A DNA stretch of 64,000 bases from positions 269,933 through 333,932 of the forward strand of contig JBCBZD010000002.1 of NCBI GenBank assembly GCA_039815485.1. The letters are read 5' to 3'. Below, one piece after another: positions 1 to 6,227 of the stretch. This stretch comes from Pseudomonadota bacterium (lineage in GTDB: Bacteria > Pseudomonadota > Alphaproteobacteria > Caulobacterales > Hyphomonadaceae). Numbering within the stretch: the stretch's first letter is position 1; each line of letters begins with the position of its first letter. The notes beneath the pieces are model-generated. The model saw nothing but the letters and a program-made list of their open reading frames with translations. It had not been told where the DNA came from and searched no databases. The translations under genes and the position numbers were made by a program.

Positions 1-1020
1 TTGGCAATCGATCCGGACTTCGCTCCCGCCATCCATCTCTACATTCATATCACTGAGTCTTCGGTCGACCCCTATCGCGCAGAAGCCTATGCAGACAGCC
101 TGCTGGAGCAAGGGCTCGGGGTCGGTCATCTCGTCCACATGCCGTCTCATATCTATCTGCGGCTTGGACAGTGGAAGAAATCGCATACGTCAAACATTGC
201 TGCGATTGAGGCAGACGAGGCCTATATCGCTGAAAGCGATAATGCCGCTGTCTATGGCAGCGTCTATTATCCGCACAATGTCCATTTCGTCGTGGCGAGT
301 TCGCAGTTTGCGGGCGATGCTGCCACCGCGCTGGAAATGGCAGACAAGCTAGAAAACATCGCCGCGCTTGACCCGTCTGCTCCGGCGCCATTGTCAGAGC
401 ATATTGCGGCCTCGCCGATCTTTACCGATCTCTTATTCTCGACCGGTGACACCGTGCTTGCCATACCGGAGCCCGCGGCGGCACATCTCTATATGCGAAA
501 CGCCTGGCATTATGCGCGCGGCACCGTCTTCGCGCGTCAGGGCGATCTTGCGGCGGCCGAAGCTGAGTTTGAAAAATTGAGCGCGCTCACAAGCGCCGAA
601 GGGTTCAGTGACTATGACACGCTCTATTTCGCGCCGCTCTCTGGGATCCAGACGGTTGCAAGTCTAACGCTCGAAGGCCGCATACTGGCGGCGAAAGGCG
701 ATCTCAAAGGCGCGATTGACCGGCTGGAGGCAGCCGCGGCCGCAGAAGCGGAACTGCCCTATTTCGAGCCGACCTGGTGGTATTATCCAACGCGCCAGAC
801 CCTCGGTCTCTACCTGCTTCAGGATGGACAATATGACCGGGCCGAGCGGGAGTTTTTCCGCACGCTGATCAAAGCACCAAACAATGCCTACGCGTTGTTT
901 GGCCTTGCTGAAACGTTCCGCGCCAAAGGCGACAAACGCGCCGAAGCCTATGCGCGGGCCCTCTTCGAAGACGCCTGGATGGGCCGCGAAGGCACCGTGC
1001 CCCAGCTGACGGATTTATAA
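1..1020 (+). CDS. TPR-repeat protein, 5'-truncated by the window edge
   Basis: Open frame from base 1 to TAA 1018-1020. Repeated helical TPR-like units (e.g. LGLYLLQDGQYDRAEREF...PNNAYALFGLAETFRAKG). Confidence 0.75.
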   Translation: MAIDPDFAPAIHLYIHITESSVDPYRAEAYADSLLEQGLGVGHLVHMPSHIYLRLGQWKKSHTSNIAAIEADEAYIAESDNAAVYGSVYYPHNVHFVVASSQFAGDAATALEMADKLENIAALDPSAPAPLSEHIAASPIFTDLLFSTGDTVLAIPEPAAAHLYMRNAWHYARGTVFARQGDLAAAEAEFEKLSALTSAEGFSDYDTLYFAPLSGIQTVASLTLEGRILAAKGDLKGAIDRLEAAAAAEAELPYFEPTWWYYPTRQTLGLYLLQDGQYDRAEREFFRTLIKAPNNAYALFGLAETFRAKGDKRAEAYARALFEDAWMGREGTVPQLTDL

Positions 1021-1024
1021 GAAA

Positions 1025-1052
1025 CAGACGGCGGCCTTTCGGTCGCCGTCTG
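1025..1052. terminator. Hairpin between the convergent TPR gene and rtcB, probable bidirectional terminator
   Basis: CAGACGGCGGCC-tttc-GGTCGCCGTCTG: 12-bp stem with one G-U pair. Confidence 0.7.
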
Positions 1053-1055
1053 CAG

Positions 1056-2267
1056 TTAACCTTTTACGCATACGACCTGACGCAGCGTGTGAACGATATC
1101 CACGAGATCAGACTGCGCTGCCATGACCGCGTCGATATCTTTATACGCCATAGGCGTCTCATCAACGACGCCCTGGTCTTTCCGGCACTCGACATGCGCA
1201 GTTGCTGCAACATGATCAGCGACGGTGAACCGACGCTTTGCCTCCGTCCGCGACATGGCTCGGCCTGCGCCGTGAGAGCATGAGCAAAACGAGTCCGCAT
1301 GTCCCTTTCCGCGCACAATGAACGACTTGGCGCCCATTGAACCCGGAATAATACCAAGTTCGCCATCGCCTGCCCGGACCGCGCCTTTCCGCGTGACCCA
1401 GATATCCGCGCCGAAATGCCGTTCCCGCTCCACGTAATTGTGGTGACAGTTCACCGCTGATTTCTCCAGAGTGAAAGCAGGTAGTTCGTCTCGGCAGGCC
1501 TGCAGAACCCGGTCCATCATGGCTTCCCGATTGAGCCGGGCATAGTCCTGTGCCCAGAGCACTGCCTGAGTGTAGTCGTCAAACAACGGCTCACCCTCGA
1601 CAAAGAAGGCCAGATCCCGGTCCGGAATGTGATAGCCAAGGACCCGTTTTTCCAAAGCGGCGCGTGCCTCTTGAATAAAGTAAGTCCCAATCCGGTTACC
1701 GGTACCCCGCGACCCAGTGTGCAACATGATCCACACCCGATCCACCTCATCGAGACAAATTTCGATAAAGTGGTTGCCGCCACCTAATGTGCCGAGCTGA
1801 GTTGAAAATTTGCCTGGGGTGATTTTCGGATGCTTCCCGACAATCACGTCCAGCTTTTCTACCAGGCCGGAGCGCTTGAGTCGGGTTGCAACTGAAGCAG
1901 GTGCGTCGCGGTGGTTGCCGCGTGGCCCGTTGCCGACCGGGACTTTGCGTTCAATTTCAGACCGCAACGCCCTCAGATTGTCTGGCAGATCAGATGCCGA
2001 CAGAGACGTTCGCATCGCCATCATACCACAGCCGATATCAACACCGACGGCGGCTGGAATGATCGCACCCTTGGTCGGGATCACTGAACCAACCGTAGCA
2101 CCGCGGCCAAAATGAACGTCAGGCATGACGGCGATGTGGCTGTGCACAAACGGCAAGCCGGCGACATTCTCCAATTGCGTGCGGGCTGCGGGTTCCAAAG
2201 GAACACCTTTGACCCACGCTTTGATCGTTCCGCCTTTGGCCGCTTCGATCACTTCAAAATTATTCAT
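1056..2267 (-). CDS. rtcB: RNA 3'-phosphate/5'-OH ligase RtcB
   Basis: 403 aa. Motifs MPDVH, AVGVDIGCG, GTLGGGNHFIE, HHNY, RKGA and HGAGR; closely resembles E. coli RtcB. Confidence 0.95.
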   Translation of the reverse strand: MNNFEVIEAAKGGTIKAWVKGVPLEPAARTQLENVAGLPFVHSHIAVMPDVHFGRGATVGSVIPTKGAIIPAAVGVDIGCGMMAMRTSLSASDLPDNLRALRSEIERKVPVGNGPRGNHRDAPASVATRLKRSGLVEKLDVIVGKHPKITPGKFSTQLGTLGGGNHFIEICLDEVDRVWIMLHTGSRGTGNRIGTYFIQEARAALEKRVLGYHIPDRDLAFFVEGEPLFDDYTQAVLWAQDYARLNREAMMDRVLQACRDELPAFTLEKSAVNCHHNYVERERHFGADIWVTRKGAVRAGDGELGIIPGSMGAKSFIVRGKGHADSFCSCSHGAGRAMSRTEAKRRFTVADHVAATAHVECRKDQGVVDETPMAYKDIDAVMAAQSDLVDIVHTLRQVVCVKG

Positions 2268-2335
2268 CGGTCTATAGCTCGCTTTGAGCTCCTTTCGTCG
2301 CCGATACCCTCCATGCGGCAGACCAACCGGGCAAG

Positions 2336-2369
2336 AAAAAACCCTCCCGGCCTGAAGCGCATGGAGGGT
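2336..2369 (-). terminator. Intrinsic terminator inside the rtcB 5' leader (attenuator)
   Basis: Minus strand reads ACCCUCC-N15-GGAGGGU then UUUUUCUUG, ending about 70 nt upstream of the rtcB ATG. Confidence 0.6.
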
Positions 2370-2410
2370 GCGTGAAACCGGCTTTCACCGGTGGGCTGAT
2401 GATCAGCCCG

Positions 2411-2497
2411 TCATCCAACATCCTCCATAAGGCATGAGCCGCTGCGCTCATCCCGCGCACCGCTAAAGCCTTTTTGATTTTGGGGCCGATAGGTCAT
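2411..2497 (-). CDS. Putative 28-aa leader peptide (uORF) MTYRPQNQKGFSGARDERSGSCLMEDVG
   Basis: GGAGG (2507-2503) lies 5 nt before the ATG. The ORF sits between the promoter and the leader terminator. Confidence 0.5.
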   Translation of the reverse strand: MTYRPQNQKGFSGARDERSGSCLMEDVG

Positions 2498-2527
2498 CGG
2501 ATCCTCCGGAATGTTGAATGGACGCGG

Positions 2528-2556
2528 CATATGCGCGATGATCGACGTAACGTCAA
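2528..2556 (-). promoter_or_regulatory. Sigma70-type promoter of the rtcB leader
   Basis: TTGACG-N17-CATATG on the minus strand. Confidence 0.55.
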
Positions 2557-2596
2557 GAAGAATTTGGGCGATCGCTTTGCAACACGACAGTAAATA

Positions 2597-2625
2597 GCCC
2601 ACAGGCCCTTTTCAGGCCTGCGGGC
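2597..2625 (-). terminator. Terminator of the DUF305/LVIVD gene
   Basis: GCCCGCAGGCC-N7-GGCCUGUGGGC followed by UAUUU. Confidence 0.65.
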
Positions 2626-2646
2626 ATCTACTGTTTCCGCCTCGAG

Positions 2647-5208
2647 CTAGCCGACCCGATCTGCGATTGAGGTGAGTGCGTCCTGCAACGCGACCATACG
2701 GGCCGCGATCACCGCGCTCGTCTCATCGATATCAAGATCGCGGGCCAGATTGTTAAGCGTGCGTTCCAGTCTGCGGTTGCGGTCTTCGCTCTCAATCGCT
2801 GCAGCAGCTGAGGCCAGCGCCTCGGTAAGGGCCGTAACCTCTATCTCAGACAGGGCCGCATCGCGCTCCAGCTGATCGACATAAGCCAGCGCGACTGTCG
2901 GCTCAGCATTCGGCCAGGTGACTGCAAACTGCTGTTGTGGATTGAACAGCTCGCCTTGATCGGCAAGCGCGGCCGCAGCGATCTCATTCTCGCTCATATA
3001 GGCGCTCGGTTCGAGCTCGAACACGTCCAGCCCGCGAACAATTTCCGTGCCATAGACTTTGCCGTCATACCAATAGGTCGACCAGTAACCGCCAAGCACC
3101 AAACGCTCCTCATGGATCGGTCCACGGTCGAAATAAGCGATCTCAACCGGATTGGAGCTGTCGGTAAAGTCAATCACCGACATGCCACCCTGATACCAGG
3201 CCTGAACGAACAAATCGCGGCCCGGAACCGGCAGGACAGAGCCATTGTGAGCGACACAATTCTCTTGTTCGCTTTGCGGCGCGGGCAGTTTGAAATAGCC
3301 TTGGAATTCAAGCTTTCCGTCGACAATGTCATAAATCGCATTGGCGCCCCAATCCATCGGATCGGATGGACGACAGCGCGGCCGACTGCCACCACCCCAT
3401 TCATCCGTGAACAGGACTTTTGTTCCGTCATTATTGAACGTTGCAGAGTGCCAATAGGCAAACTTCTGATCCACGACGTCGTCAATACGTTTCGGATTAT
3501 AGGGGTCTGAAATATCAAAGATCACGCCATTGCCAGAACAGGCACCCGCAGCAATCTGCAACTCCGGGAAGGCTGTGATGTCATGGCAATGATCGGTCCG
3601 CCAGGTGCGTTGGGTGTCATCGCCATGGTCGCCGCCGCGCCAAAGCCCGGCCATCTGACCGGTCTCTTCATCCATGAAGACCGCCGGGCTATCAACGATA
3701 CGGGCTTGCATTGGGTCGTCGACCGGAATCTCAATCACATCAATGCGGAACAGGGCCGTGCGGTCATCGCCGGGAACCGGGCCAATACAGCCGGGCAGCT
3801 CCTCTTCCTCGCGGATGAAAGCGGTGCCGGAATTATAGACGATGATCTTGCCATCTTCATCTGGGCCGGACACGACCGAATGGGTGTGAGAGCCGCGGCA
3901 GGTCTGCACCTGTCCAACCTGACGTGGCAGGGTTGGATCAGAGATATCGAAAATTCTGAGGCCGCGGAAACGCTCTTCGCTCACATCCTCAGAGACGCCC
4001 TGACGCCCGCAGTCTACGCGCCCGCGCGCTTGCTCTACAGACATGATTAGCAAATCACCAACAATCGAGACATCGCCTTGTCCACCGGGGCAGACAACCG
4101 AACTGATCAGCTCTGGCACGTCACTTTCGGCCAGGCTGTAGATATTGAAACCGTGATAGTTGCCAACGATCAGCATATCGCCCGAGAAGGCCATATCTGT
4201 GTTGGAGAAACTGAGCAGCGGCGAGCGCTCGCCCCAATTTGTGCCTTCATTGGACTGCTCGTCTTCAGTCTCAGTTTCTTCAGACGCAACTTCGGTTTCG
4301 GCGGGCATGGCGTCATCGTGACCCGCATGTCCCTCATGGCCATCATGCCCGGCATGATCGTGGGTTTCGGCTTCGGTGTCAGAGGCTTCTTCCTCTTCAT
4401 CGTCAGGAACGATCGGTGGCAGGTCAGACGGGTTTTCCGGGTCAAAGAACCCATCCGGCCGTGGCAGAGACGCAATCAGGGTCAGGTTGGAAATCGCCCG
4501 GCCGGCATCCTGAAAGCCTGCAGCCAGTCCGGCCCGTGGGTCACTCGACAGCCCAGCCAGCAATTCGTTCATGCGCTCGATTTCAGAGGTCTGGTCGTTG
4601 ACAATGTCATTGACGAACTCAAACAGCACTGGATCATAGGCCGTGCCGCGTTTGTCCAGCAAGTCCTCAACCATGGTCACAGCGCCTTCATGGTGCCTGA
4701 TCATCAGGGTCAGGAACAGCTGATCAAATGAGACCCCGTCAGAGGCCGCCAGCAGTGCCATTTGTTCCGGCGTCGCCATCCCCATCATGTCATGCGACAT
4801 GTGCGTGCCATGATGATCATGCCCACCTGGCGCATCTTCGCCGCGCTGGGCCAGCCAGTCTTGCATAAACGCGATTTCATCAGCCTGGGAGGCATCGATC
4901 CGCCCGGAAATATCGACGATATCATCCGTATTGGTGCGATCAGCCACCAAAGAGGCCATCTCGACGGCTTGCTGATGATGCGGGATCATGTCCTGCATAA
5001 AGCGGACATCATCGATGGAGTAACTCGTATCAGCGATGGTCGCCGCTTCTTCAGCGCTAAGCGTTATTGCCGTTTCCCCCGGCGCGCCAGGCTGAATAAT
5101 CACAACGTCTTCTGCGCTCGCGAGACCACTTGCAATGGACAAGGCCACAATACTTGTCGCCGCCTTCGTAATCCATTGTCGCTGTTTGGTCCGTCCAATC
5201 GTGCTCAT
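2647..5208 (-). CDS. Secreted DUF305 (CopM-like) domain + LVIVD-repeat beta-propeller protein
   Basis: Signal peptide. DUF305 helices (FMQDMIPHHQQAVEMA, LMIRHHEGAVTM). His/Met-rich linkers. LVIVD-like repeats (GLRIFDISDP, VIDFTDSSNP). Confidence 0.8.
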   Translation of the reverse strand: MSTIGRTKQRQWITKAATSIVALSIASGLASAEDVVIIQPGAPGETAITLSAEEAATIADTSYSIDDVRFMQDMIPHHQQAVEMASLVADRTNTDDIVDISGRIDASQADEIAFMQDWLAQRGEDAPGGHDHHGTHMSHDMMGMATPEQMALLAASDGVSFDQLFLTLMIRHHEGAVTMVEDLLDKRGTAYDPVLFEFVNDIVNDQTSEIERMNELLAGLSSDPRAGLAAGFQDAGRAISNLTLIASLPRPDGFFDPENPSDLPPIVPDDEEEEASDTEAETHDHAGHDGHEGHAGHDDAMPAETEVASEETETEDEQSNEGTNWGERSPLLSFSNTDMAFSGDMLIVGNYHGFNIYSLAESDVPELISSVVCPGGQGDVSIVGDLLIMSVEQARGRVDCGRQGVSEDVSEERFRGLRIFDISDPTLPRQVGQVQTCRGSHTHSVVSGPDEDGKIIVYNSGTAFIREEEELPGCIGPVPGDDRTALFRIDVIEIPVDDPMQARIVDSPAVFMDEETGQMAGLWRGGDHGDDTQRTWRTDHCHDITAFPELQIAAGACSGNGVIFDISDPYNPKRIDDVVDQKFAYWHSATFNNDGTKVLFTDEWGGGSRPRCRPSDPMDWGANAIYDIVDGKLEFQGYFKLPAPQSEQENCVAHNGSVLPVPGRDLFVQAWYQGGMSVIDFTDSSNPVEIAYFDRGPIHEERLVLGGYWSTYWYDGKVYGTEIVRGLDVFELEPSAYMSENEIAAAALADQGELFNPQQQFAVTWPNAEPTVALAYVDQLERDAALSEIEVTALTEALASAAAAIESEDRNRRLERTLNNLARDLDIDETSAVIAARMVALQDALTSIADRVG

Positions 5209-5345: not shown

Positions 5346-6227
5346 TTAGGCTTGCGGAATAAGGCCTGCGGTTTCCGGGTCACCGACCATAACGGTCAGG
5401 GCCTTGCGCAGTTTGCCAAGCGCCTGATGCTCAATCTGGCGAACCCGTTCCTTGGAAATCCCAAGCCGTTTGCCAAGCACTTCCAGCGTCACGCCATCAT
5501 CGGTCAGGCGGCGCTCCATGATGATCAGCGTCTCGCGCTCATTCAGTGCTTTTAAGGCTTCGGCAATCCACTCCTTGCGGCGTTCGCTGTCATGCTGCTC
5601 CATCACCTGAACGTCCGGTGTGGCCGCATGATCTGGCAGAAGGTCCTGCCATTCAGCTTCTCCGTCAGCCGTCATGGGGGCGTTGAGAGAGCGATCAGCA
5701 GCTGACAGGCGCGAGGCCATGGAGGCAACATCCCGCTCTGGCACACCAAGGTGTTCAGAGACCCATTTGCGGTTCTCATCGGTCATAATGCCATCGCCGG
5801 TATCATCAATCTTGGCGCGCAACCGGCGCAGGTTGAAGAATAGCGATTTCTGCGCTGCTGTCGTCCCGGTGCGAACAATCGACCAGTTGCGCAAGACATA
5901 ATCCTGAATGGAAGACCGGATCCACCATGAGGCATAGGTCGAAAAGCGCACTTCGCGGCCCGGATCAAATCGCGCGGCCGCTTGCATCAGGCCGACATTG
6001 CCTTCCTGAACAAGGTCGGCGAGCGGCAGGCCATAGTGGCGAAACTTCGAAGCCATCGCGATCACCAGACGCATATAGGCCGTCGTCAACTCATGCAGGG
6101 CGCGTTCATCTTCATGGTCTCGCCAACGCGTTGCCAGATGGATCTCATGATCGGCCTCCAGCATCGGGGCCTTCATGGCTTTCCGAACGAATCTGCGATC
6201 AGCGGGTCCTGCTTGCTGTGACGCCAT
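5346..6227 (-). CDS. rpoH2: RNA polymerase sigma-32 family factor, RpoH2 type
   Basis: Region 2 DLVQEGNVGLMQAAARFDP...FSTYASWW, RpoH box QKSLFFNLRR, region 4 TLEVLGKRLGISKERVRQIE. Located next to carD as in other alphaproteobacteria. Confidence 0.88.
   Translation of the reverse strand: MASQQAGPADRRFVRKAMKAPMLEADHEIHLATRWRDHEDERALHELTTAYMRLVIAMASKFRHYGLPLADLVQEGNVGLMQAAARFDPGREVRFSTYASWWIRSSIQDYVLRNWSIVRTGTTAAQKSLFFNLRRLRAKIDDTGDGIMTDENRKWVSEHLGVPERDVASMASRLSAADRSLNAPMTADGEAEWQDLLPDHAATPDVQVMEQHDSERRKEWIAEALKALNERETLIIMERRLTDDGVTLEVLGKRLGISKERVRQIEHQALGKLRKALTVMVGDPETAGLIPQA

Follow-up and report, generated by a model that had tools for sequence, protein, structure and literature searches.

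A conserved leader with a short reading frame and competing helices probably controls rtcB by ribosome-dependent attenuation in Hyphomonadaceae and their relatives

How is the RNA-repair ligase gene rtcB controlled where its known activator is missing? RtcR and sigma-54 control rtcBA in E. coli and rsr-yrlBA-rtcBA in Salmonella (PMC12606134). The rtcB locus considered here lies on a 64-kb stretch of DNA from a member of the Hyphomonadaceae (the window). A preliminary description of this DNA had noted neither rtcR nor rtcA beside the gene, and the follow-up agrees: rtcA is absent from the locus, the GAFTGA/ESELFG motif of RtcR is absent from all frames of the window, and a TGGCA-N5-TTGC sigma-54 promoter is absent upstream of rtcB. 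Among the related loci sampled, RtcR-like ORFs with GAFTGA occur only in seven that do not carry the leader described below; RtcR and leader are thus mutually exclusive in this sample. We conclude that the ~290 bases before rtcB most likely switch the repair gene on when ribosomes get stuck, and that this leader is probably a ribosome-dependent (leader-peptide) transcription attenuator. The features on which this reading is built are collected in Table 1.

Table 1. Features of the rtcB locus and its leader, in window coordinates
Feature	Position	Strand	Remarks
Promoter-like TTGACG (2556-2551), 17-nt spacer, CATATG (2533-2528)	2528..2556	-	read from sequence
5' box CAUUCAACAUUC (segment 1, anti-antiterminator)	2509..2520	-	5' strand of closing helix P1
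uORF Shine-Dalgarno (SD) GGAGG	2503..2507	-	SD-like sequence also precedes the uORF start in related leaders
P2, start-codon hairpin CCGAUG-ACC-UAUCGG	2486..2500	-	AUG paired with codon 3
uORF, 28 codons + UGA, peptide MTYRPQNQKGFSGARDERSGSCLMEDVG*	2411..2497	-	ATG at 2497
P3, mid-uORF hairpin UGCGC-GGGAUGA-GCGCA	2443..2459	-
Segment 2: A box AUGGAGGAUG (2428-2419) and 3' box to the stop codon	2412..2428	-
H1 hairpin GGGCUGA-UCA-UCAGCCC	2393..2409	-	directly 3' of the uORF stop
H2 hairpin ACCGG-UGAAAG-CCGGU	2377..2392	-
Intrinsic terminator: T5' ACCCUCC(AUGCG), T3' GGAGGGU, U6 tract (segments 3 and 4)	2336..2369	-	predicted
D box CGCAUGGAGGGU (segment 5)	2306..2317	-	perfect 12-nt complement of T5' (2369-2358)
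rtcB SD AAGGAG	2294-2289	-	split ribosome-binding site
SD-AUG hairpin AGCUC-AAAGC-GAGCU	2290-2276	-	8 nt to the rtcB AUG
rtcB, RNA 3'-phosphate/5'-OH ligase, 403 aa	1056..2267	-	Pfam RtcB E=1.5e-127

The RtcB of the window is matched by RtcB chains in the PDB (E=1e-31 to 1e-24) and stays below the cut-offs of the models for PrfH-linked homologs (139 bits for TIGR03073, cut-off 271.8; 172 for PRK09588, cut-off 407). On its 3' side, rtcB is followed by its own terminator and then by a convergent TPR gene, with no prfH. The neighbours in the window (a DUF305/LVIVD protein, RpoH and the TPR protein) are found near rtcB in none of the 80 related loci. Promoter, SD-led uORF and terminator travel with rtcB as a conserved unit even where the genes around them differ: the leader architecture precedes rtcB in about 45 of these loci, from four or more families (Hyphomonadaceae, Caulobacter/Brevundimonas, Maricaulis and Micropepsaceae), and in Micropepsaceae it stands before an rsr(Ro60)-rtcB operon. 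Culturable carriers include Hyphomonas sp. CY54-11-8 (L006), H. pacifica (L007), Ponticaulis koreensis DSM 19734 (L008), H. johnsonii MHS-2 (L009), H. chukchiensis (L011), Caulobacter sp. UNC279MFTsu5.1 (L046) and Brevundimonas sp. Root1279 (L074). A search of metagenomes seeded with the leader only returned 120 hits, 66 of which have rtcB 43-171 nt downstream and one a TROVE gene; the remaining hits that were read are unrelated terminators, and some contigs ended early. One further hit (L111) is leader-like and has no rtcB match. The window sequence itself was found in public runs only in three marine DNA metagenomes.

The leader matches no described family. Against Rfam 15, the window leader gave Magnesium-II as its best hit (18.2 bits vs 40 needed, E=0.49) and CC3664 on the wrong strand (E=2.5), and the leaders of eight relatives produced sub-threshold chance matches only, sR16 among them. 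In the literature searched, nothing specific turned up on a leader, uORF or attenuator of rtcB, or on the gene in Caulobacter. Judged from these sequence and literature searches, the leader is a previously undescribed regulatory element of an already known type, leader-peptide attenuation.

Promoter, uORF SD and 28-codon uORF lie exactly where the preliminary description had placed them. In the alignment of Hyphomonadaceae leaders, TTGAC and CATAnG are kept at equal spacing; a sigma-70 scan did not call this promoter because its -10 hexamer does not end in T6. A sigma-32 promoter, considered since rpoH is nearby, was rejected, as the hexamers do not fit. Transcription probably starts near 2522.

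The uORF is retained well beyond the window. A script recovered, in 39 of 41 loci, an ORF of 25-35 codons that has an SD and stops 27-47 nt short of the terminator, and in the other two an SD-led uORF was found by eye; in the controls, such openness was seen in 12.8% of shuffles and in none of the 39 reverse complements. Metagenome leaders carry the uORF as well, UUG starts included. Start and stop codon types vary among leaders, and the peptide sequence shows no conservation. These comparisons indicate that the uORF is maintained as a reading frame across clades, far above chance, despite the turnover of its sequence. One metagenome-assembled genome (L015) has a uORF without its 5' half. An overlapping AUGA stop-start at the uORF end was discarded as a feature, since it is not conserved and many relatives have UAG. 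There is no regulatory codon run in the uORF, and the peptides vary among leaders. A codon-specific sensor, with early Tyr/His-Arg codons as targets of anticodon nucleases, was also considered, since M-x-[Y/H]-R recurs at the N-terminus of the peptide; we rejected it, as this motif is explained by hairpin P2, which pairs the AUG with codon 3.

Promoter, uORF and terminator make up a self-contained transcription unit and could be an independent small gene, for a small protein or a trans-acting sRNA, whose proximity to rtcB reflects co-function. Trans-acting attenuator RNAs and leader peptides are documented (PMC7298713, PMC7968998), and such a role might also exist alongside attenuation, as for rnTrpL/peTrpL in Sinorhizobium. 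We regard a separate small gene as very unlikely, though, given that the peptide is unconserved, that rtcB or rsr-rtcB always follows the unit immediately and in the same orientation, that no promoter is evident in the ~70 nt from the U tract to rtcB, and that this interval contains the conserved D box and an SD.

Attenuation would require a terminator and a competing antiterminator, and the leader offers candidates for both. ACCCUCC (2369-2363) pairs with GGAGGGU (2347-2341) in a G+C-rich stem of 7-9 bp, followed by U's to 2336, which is the canonical form of an intrinsic terminator and agrees with its original assignment to 2369-2336. The pattern occurs once in the 64 kb, with 0.00 occurrences expected, and recurs at the equivalent position before rtcB in 42 of the 80 relatives; CCCUCC and GGAGGG are invariant across families, and the terminator alone was recovered by RNAalifold on the raw MAFFT alignment. 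The resemblance between the uORF end (AUGGAGGAUG, 2428-2419) and the terminator 5' arm (CACCCUCCAU, 2370-2361), reported earlier as nine of ten positions, was reproduced. Segment 2 has two alternative partners, either the 5' box (P1) or T5' (antiterminator). In every leader the A box has a GGAGG core that can pair with the CCUCC of T5'; the core lies 2-17 nt from the uORF stop, so that a terminating ribosome would cover it. The best partner for T5' on its upstream side likewise maps to the uORF end: its centre lies a median of 12 nt before the stop, and between -30 and +3 of it in 36 of 38 loci. The A:T5' helix combines an invariant core with little covariation in its flanks, and its cognate pairs are only 0.5 kcal/mol better than non-cognate ones in a duplex test. 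This test supports T5':D and T5':T3'; it lends no support to the A:T5' flanks, nor to pairing of the 5' box with the A box across all clades.

The pairing scheme of the preliminary description did not include P1, a helix that joins the 5' end of the transcript to the end of the uORF. In the minimum free energy (MFE) structure, the 5' box (2520-2509) pairs with 2423-2412. On the MAFFT alignment A2, 77.8% of the cells are paired, compared to 27-50% in slid controls, and within the clade of the window P1 shows 14 double-sided changes, a number reached by none of 500 shuffles. The MFE structures of other clades join the A/stop region to the uORF start or to its early codons. The leader as a whole folds with z = -4.28, and none of 200 shuffles folds as well. 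The start-codon hairpin P2 covaries (CCGAU/AUCGG to CCUAUG/CAUAGG to ACCAU/AUGGU). Each relative also has a hairpin at the place of P3 with a different sequence; since P3 is out of register in the MAFFT alignments, its conservation was judged from hairpin position. An inverted repeat proposed at 2434-2451 is present and competes with the conserved P3. H1 was correctly located from the start (2393-2409) and has compensatory variants in two relatives (GGGUGG..CCACCC in L004, GUGCAU..AUGCAC in L008), whereas H2, originally drawn at 2372-2388, exists ~4 nt away from there; it varies as AUGGCC..GGUCAU in L006 and GACGG..CCGUC in L008. Taken together, the pairings are conserved in orthologous leaders, which had been named as a check on the idea: P1, P2 and T5':D covary and the A:T5' flanks do so weakly.

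A closed, covarying multi-helix 5' domain is also what one would expect of a ligand-, RNA- or protein-binding element in which the uORF is not the sensor. Such an element could detect damaged RNA ends or tRNA fragments in the manner of a riboswitch, or could serve autoregulation by RtcB or another protein, with the fold of the P1-P2-P3 junction, H1 and H2 deciding between terminator and antiterminator. The unconserved peptide, some conserved single-stranded stretches (the AAUCA/AAAGG linker) and the conserved hairpins H1 and H2, which have no part in the attenuator model, would fit this explanation. We nevertheless consider it unlikely: frame, SD, start and stop are maintained across clades far above chance, no Rfam family matches, and the distance from A box to stop fits masking by a ribosome.

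We therefore favour an attenuator in which five segments compete: the 5' box (1), the A box (2), the terminator arms (3 and 4) and the D box (5), of which the first four would follow a trp-like logic (1:2, 2:3, 3:4). A constitutive sigma-70-type promoter would start the ~190-nt leader. Without a ribosome, 1:2 (P1) would form, followed by 3:4, and transcription would stop at ~2336. A ribosome translating the uORF to its stop would cover segment 2, again allowing 3:4 to form and transcription to stop. A ribosome held at the start or early codons, however, would mask segment 1 and leave segment 2 free, so that 2:3 could pair ahead of the synthesis of segment 4, and polymerase would read on into rtcB. 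In sum, the leader would make production of the RNA-repair ligase depend on impaired translation, with no need for RtcR. What it senses is presumably impairment of translation in general.

Transcripts truncated ahead of T3' and folded under a 30-nt mask that stands for the ribosome are consistent with this scheme. A:T5' is lost in every locus when the P site lies in the last 8-10 codons, and in the window its probability is 0.01 without a ribosome and ~1.0 with a ribosome at codons 0-4. Masking of the antiterminator by a ribosome at the uORF stop (OFF), as proposed at the outset, is compatible with A-box position and mask folding; covariation in the flanks is weak. The further proposal that stalled ribosomes give the ON state holds in the model for ribosomes at the start or early codons, and damaged ribosomes and cleaved tRNA, the other triggers put forward, are speculative candidates. 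Absence of translation is probably OFF rather than ON, because P1 is predicted to sequester the antiterminator of the window leader in ribosome-free RNA. For several relatives, the models form A:T5' even without a ribosome, and the no-translation state may differ between clades. With T3' present, the terminator wins at equilibrium wherever the ribosome sits, and the switch would therefore have to be kinetic.

A related idea is that Shine-Dalgarno mimicry lets the leader sense whether ribosomes are intact. In T5', the invariant CCCUCC copies the anti-SD core of 16S rRNA, and A box, T3' and D box are all SD-like GGAGG sequences; since ~8 nt lie between the end of the A box and the stop, the anti-SD of a ribosome at the last codon could hold the box. 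The A box would then be contested by the mRNA's anti-SD mimic and the 3' end of 16S rRNA in the translating ribosome, ribosomes with a damaged or missing 16S 3' region would fail to hold it, rtcB would be turned on, and D box and T3' could be standby sites for the remaining ribosomes. 16S rRNA cleavage of the colicin E3 or MazF type is reported to be repaired by RtcB-family ligases. We rate this refinement as highly improbable.

The D box adds a feature that the classical attenuator model does not contain. The preliminary description had listed it as a third, mutually exclusive partner of the terminator 5' arm; it is indeed a perfect complement, and it covaries, but an antiterminator role is not compatible with its place after the U tract, from where it cannot prevent termination. 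On alignment A1, 87.8% of the T5':D cells are paired vs 37-60% in slid controls; there are 14 double-sided changes, which none of 500 shuffles reach, several pair types at positions -2, +5, +6 and +9 across clades, and cognate pairs beat non-cognate ones (rank 0-5 of 37). By these measures T5':D shows the strongest covariation and is the best-supported long-range helix of the leader. The D box is thus conserved, yet outside the classical model. In read-through RNA, segment 5 would take the place of segment 4 as the partner of segment 3, which may lock the terminator open, may prevent the CCUCC arm from reaching the ribosome-binding site of rtcB, or may act on mRNA fate.

The ribosome-binding site of rtcB is unusual as well. 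In the window, the SD lies ~22 nt from the AUG, and the hairpin between them is predicted to restore normal spacing. Among the ten closest relatives (L002-L011), nine have 18-28 nt from the end of the SD core to the AUG, with the gap occupied by a hairpin of varying sequence; for L007 the script also picked up a late AGGA, 3 nt from the AUG. Other clades have normal spacing (7-11 nt), and the split SD is confined to the marine Hyphomonadaceae clade. A comparable arrangement is known from phage T4 gene 38, where a hairpin bridges a split ribosome-binding site.

Both features would suit a leader of opposite or otherwise different sense, in which the terminator is mainly a pause or processing site, T5':D and the split, hairpin-dependent ribosome-binding site govern translation or mRNA stability, and the uORF merely keeps the leader unfolded. 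RNA-derived contigs from relatives of a Caulobacter locus (L046) span the terminator, at a shallow depth of 3-10 that carries no 3'-end information. Such post-transcriptional control is quite unlikely to be the main function, considering that the terminator is canonical and invariant, that group-2 leaders lack the T5':D pairing yet keep uORF, A box and terminator, and that the split SD is limited to one clade. For the leader as an attenuator, the presence, conservation and covariation of its parts are seen directly; that it terminates transcription, in which direction it switches and what naturally triggers it we infer from them.

The notion that translation failure feeds an RtcB-family gene through a leader is not without precedent. 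In P. aeruginosa, the PA5471.1 leader peptide, from a constitutively transcribed leader ORF, attenuates the RtcB-like armZ (PA5471)-PA5470 (prfH) genes: complete translation lets a 3:4 terminator form, while drugs that target the ribosome, as well as suhB or cca defects, stall ribosomes, so that the RNA is restructured and read-through results, cca encoding the tRNA CCA-adding enzyme, so that its deletion is a tRNA 3'-end repair defect (PMC12057347; PMC13041342). Both systems place a short leader ORF upstream of an RtcB-family gene. However, PA5471.1 has 13 codons whereas the rtcB uORFs have 25-35, no sequence similarity was noticed between the unaligned leaders, and the rtcB leader stands apart by its start-codon hairpin, the helix that closes its 5' end and its fifth conserved segment. 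The target differs too: ArmZ belongs to the PrfH-linked RtcB2/ArmZ type, unlike the RtcB of the window with its scores below the PrfH-model cut-offs and no prfH after it.

As modelled, the rtcB leader shares the 1:2/2:3/3:4 logic, with a terminating ribosome over segment 2 and predicted termination when the leader is untranslated, with amino-acid operon attenuators such as trp, his, leu, thr and pheA. Unlike these, it has neither a regulatory codon run nor a link to an amino-acid pathway, and in the clade of the window segment 1 lies upstream of the uORF SD, outside the ORF. Leaders such as B. subtilis bmrB-bmrCD (PMC4191407) and mef/mel (PMC4335068) similarly use a short ORF to sense slowed or arrested translation. 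These control resistance or efflux genes, often by drug-specific arrest peptides, whereas the target here is an RNA-repair ligase and no conserved arrest motif is present. With RtcR systems, the leader has in common its target genes (rtcB, or rsr-rtcB in Micropepsaceae) and presumably induction upon damage to the translation apparatus (PMC12606134). In contrast to RtcR, a CARF-domain activator, the leader is predicted to act in cis, by RNA and ribosome.

Control of rtcB has so far been understood only for enterobacterial RtcR/sigma-54 and, indirectly, for the ArmZ paralog of Pseudomonas. If our reading is true, a whole alphaproteobacterial order and some of its neighbours use a cis-acting RNA to link canonical rtcB directly to ribosome state during translation, and some rsr(Ro60)-rtcB operons are tied to it in the same manner. 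Two lineages would then have come to one solution by leaders that seem unrelated. The catalogue of attenuators would gain an unannotated family of structured leaders whose fifth segment is unusual, and the leader would provide a compact, genetically tractable sensor for which insults call for RNA repair, with tRNA cleavage, rRNA cleavage and translation inhibitors as candidates.

The leader upstream of rtcB is real and conserved. With RtcB as the query protein, a scan limited to a single genome for each species yielded 80 rtcB loci, the best match being 87% identical; the window itself comes from a marine Hyphomonadaceae member. Inspection of the 300 nt before each rtcB, combined with pattern searches, revealed the leader architecture in about 45 of the 80 loci (table). 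In the window, the promoter, upstream open reading frame (uORF), terminator, A box at the uORF end (matching the 5' terminator arm, T5', at 9 of 10 positions) and 12-nt complement of T5' further downstream (D box) named in the preliminary description were all found on the minus strand; of its additional hairpins, 2393-2409 is exact, while the one placed at 2372-2388 lies at 2377-2392. The 276-nt leader has a folding energy of -121.7 kcal/mol, which gives z = -4.28 when compared with dinucleotide shuffles, and the terminator pattern occurs once in 64 kb versus 0.00 expected. Since the preceding gene ends in its own, strong terminator, the leader belongs to rtcB. That gene encodes an 853-aa protein with DUF305/CopM-like (copper metallochaperone-like), LVIVD-repeat and choice-of-anchor B domains, and the RpoH gene lies two genes upstream of rtcB, a neighbourhood that is not kept in relatives.

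Coordinates of leader elements and genes in the window, and related loci carrying the leader
Feature	Position or loci	Strand	Basis or remark
Promoter-like TTGACG, 17-nt spacer, CATATG	2556-2551, 2533-2528	minus	sequence reading of 700-3300
5' box (P1, 5' strand)	2520-2509	minus	pairs with 2423-2412 (uORF end)
uORF, 28 codons: GGAGG, ATG, TGA	2507-2503, 2497, 2413-2411	minus	sequence reading
A box AUGGAGGAUG	2428-2419	minus	matches CACCCUCCAU, 2370-2361
Terminator hairpin ACCCUCC/GGAGGGU (T5'/T3')	2369-2363 / 2347-2341, then U's to 2336	minus	sequence reading
D box CGCAUGGAGGGU	2317-2306	minus	perfect complement of 2369-2358
rtcB	1056-2267	minus	Pfam RtcB, E=1.5e-127
DUF305/LVIVD protein gene	2647-5208	minus	5' of leader; own terminator 2625-2597
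RpoH (sigma-32) gene	5346-6227	minus	NCBIfam PRK07500, E=2.9e-126
Leader, Hyphomonadaceae	L001-L012, L015-L018
Leader, second group (Vitreimonas/Terricaulis-like)	L013, L014, L019-L023, L041
Leader, Maricaulis	L024, L025
Leader, Caulobacter and Brevundimonas	L045, L046, L049-L052, L057-L059, L062, L065, L074, L079
Leader, other loci	L035, L048, L053
Leader, Micropepsaceae/Rhizomicrobium	L044:250-590, L047:1280-1620, L077:1280-1620		2.5-3.5 kb upstream of rtcB

A Shine-Dalgarno (SD)-led ORF of 25-35 codons, with its stop 27-47 nt before T5', was found by script in 39 of 41 loci and by eye in the other two, compared with 12.8% of shuffled regions and none of 39 reverse complements. The frame is open in 50 distinct metagenome leaders, which use AUG, GUG or UUG starts and UGA, UAG or UAA stops, and the peptide sequence is not conserved across related leaders, as would be expected of a leader whose translation, rather than its product, matters. 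The recurrent M-x-[Y/H]-R motif arises because the start-codon hairpin (P2) pairs AUG with codon 3; P2 itself covaries, from CCGAUG/UAUCGG through CCUAUG/CAUAGG to ACCAU/AUGGU. One Hyphomonadaceae MAG (L015:3800-4003) carries a natural deletion that removes the 5' half of the uORF together with its SD and start, and leaves the promoter, the A and D boxes, the terminator and the mid hairpin in place; this leader could be constitutive or dead.

Comparative analysis points to T5':D as the best-supported long-range helix: 87.8% of alignment cells are paired versus 37-60% in slid registers, 14 cells changed on both sides (0 of 500 shuffles reach 14), and when set against non-cognate partners, the cognate pairs come out at rank 0-5 of 37. 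Its extension varies by clade (CAUGCG/CGCAUG to CGCGCG, CUGGC/GCCAG and CCGG), and the second group lacks T5':D, its downstream box pairing with the terminator loop and 3' arm (T3') instead. The pairing scheme first proposed had omitted P1, a helix between the 5' box of the transcript and the uORF end; its 3' strand runs from the final G's of the A box to the second base of the stop codon. P1 and P2 jointly show 77.8% of cells paired (27-50% when slid) and 14 double changes, again reached by 0 of 500 shuffles. In minimum-free-energy folds of other clades, the SD, start or early codons pair with the A/stop region, giving a long rod with the mid-uORF hairpin (P3) at its tip. The terminator core CCCUCC/GGAGGG is invariant across leaders and its outer pairs vary compatibly. 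Likewise invariant is the core of the proposed antiterminator, A:T5' (GGAGG:CCUCC), and the distance from its end to the stop is 2-17 nt, or 8 nt for most members of the window's clade. When the entire leader was searched in an unbiased sliding scan, the best T5' partner had its centre a median of 12 nt before the stop, and within -30 to +3 of it in 36 of 38 loci. The A:T5' flanks show little covariation, cognate pairs being only 0.5 kcal/mol better than non-cognate ones. Because four segments share one common core, core covariation is hardly possible, and this may explain the invariance of the A:T5' core.

Equilibrium folding with the whole terminator present gave the terminator in every case, so any switch must be kinetic, as in classical attenuators. 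We folded transcripts ending just short of T3' while a 30-nt ribosome footprint was moved along the uORF codon by codon. With the P site in the last 8-10 codons, A:T5' was abolished in every locus. In the window leader, P1 captures the A box when no ribosome is present, and the probability of A:T5' is accordingly 0.01; a ribosome at codons 0-4 covers the 3' portion of the 5' box and raises this probability to about 1.0. From this folding picture, the logic of the switch would most likely be trp-like: an untranslated leader would terminate before rtcB (OFF), as would one translated through to the stop, while delay of a ribosome on the start codon or the early codons would permit read-through (ON). 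The earlier interpretation would thus need correcting on the no-translation state, for which the window leader is predicted to be OFF. For several relatives, the folds predict A:T5' even when no ribosome is present, and clades may therefore differ in what happens without translation. The role of the downstream partner of T5', counted among three mutually exclusive pairings in the preliminary description, also needs correction: the D box lies at least 18 nt beyond the U tract and cannot affect termination. In read-through RNA it would replace T3' as the partner of T5', and might lock the terminator open, shield the rtcB SD from the CCUCC arm, or control mRNA fate. RNA-derived contigs from relatives of Caulobacter L046 (depth 3-10) span uORF and terminator and reach 30-50 nt into rtcB. 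They show that transcription includes this leader and in some RNA continues beyond the terminator, and this alone; the window sequence itself matched marine DNA metagenomes only.

In marine Hyphomonadaceae (L002-L011, last 48 nt before rtcB), the sole rtcB SD ends 18-28 nt before the AUG in 9 of these 10 closest relatives, L007 having an extra late AGGA 3 nt before it. A 4-7 bp hairpin directly follows this distant SD (window 2276-2294, minus strand) and differs in sequence by species (AGCUC/GAGCU, GGUC/GACC, AGUCUGC/GCAGACU, GGUCUG/CAGACC), pointing to a split ribosome-binding site bridged by a hairpin. In the other clades, the spacing is normal (7-11 nt).

The leader travels with rtcB. None of the window's neighbour genes recurs near rtcB in any other locus of the 80-locus set. 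In the Micropepsaceae/Rhizomicrobium group, a TROVE/Ro60-vWA gene directly precedes rtcB (L047:2656-3888) and the leader lies far upstream, hence it precedes an rsr-rtcB operon; a second copy of its terminator stem closes this operon (L047:6407-6434, L043:5493-5519). A metagenome-contig search seeded on A box and terminator, without protein, gave 120 matches, 66 with an rtcB start 43-171 nt downstream (mostly 67-87 nt) and one with a TROVE gene. One match (L111) is leader-like and has no rtcB match; the others that were read are unrelated terminators, mostly from AT-rich genomes, some contigs being too short to tell. Among AT-rich contigs without rtcB, L107/L108/L130, L152/L178 and L195 have in common a sequence of about 170 nt ending ..AUGGAGGGUU..CCCUCC..GGAGGGUUUU, with a tRNA-like sequence after it in one case; this shared stretch resembles the 3' end of some unrelated gene for a structured RNA. 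Insertions between leader and rtcB also occur: L013, L022 and L041 have a conserved ORF of about 80 aa (..RGTERTVAWIDARGAKVGARVELKTLDDLGPWIVEAVYDAPL..) in a terminator-to-rtcB gap of about 300 nt, and the Vitreimonas MAG L020 has a tRNA-Gly(GCC) gene (3904-3978) there, with five more tRNA genes (Tyr, Met, Pro, Glu, Arg) directly after rtcB (5346-5906), placing the ligase inside a tRNA array.

In keeping with the preliminary remark that no rtcR or rtcA flanks this rtcB, all reading frames of the 64 kb are free of sigma-54 activator motifs, and rtcB has no -24/-12 promoter in front of it. Downstream of rtcB lie its terminator and a convergently oriented TPR gene, leaving no rtcA or prfH there. 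GAFTGA proteins occur in 7 of 80 loci, all without the leader. Three leaderless loci from other taxa (L032, L060, L070) have tRNA-like sequences just upstream (240 nt before rtcB; for example GGUUCGAAUCCC..CCA, then GCUCAGU..GAGCAG), reminiscent of the Y-RNA/tRNA-like elements of rsr-rtcB loci; L060 and L070 also have GAFTGA activators.

The preliminary description also needs correction on novelty, as the literature offers one close functional parallel. RtcB-like armZ of P. aeruginosa (with prfH, PA5470) is under transcription attenuation by PA5471.1, a leader of 13 codons: full translation allows the 3:4 terminator to form, and stalling by ribosome-targeting drugs, or suhB or cca defects, causes read-through (PMC12057347; PMC13041342). 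The window RtcB falls outside the PrfH-linked subfamily (TIGR03073, 139 bits versus a cut-off of 271.8), leader lengths differ greatly, and, short of an alignment, no sequence likeness between the leaders was noticed. The rtcB leader appears to have solved the same problem independently. Rfam gave no match for the leaders of the window and eight related loci, and our literature search on rtcB leaders, uORFs or attenuators, or on rtcB in Caulobacter, found nothing beyond this precedent; to our knowledge, the family is undescribed. The original proposal of a ribosome-coupled attenuator was right in kind, and we consider ribosome-dependent attenuation of rtcB by this leader likely; which way it switches, and in response to which natural trigger, is inferred. 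Together, these leaders would constitute a family of leader-peptide transcription attenuators preceding rtcB and rsr-rtcB in Caulobacterales and their neighbours.
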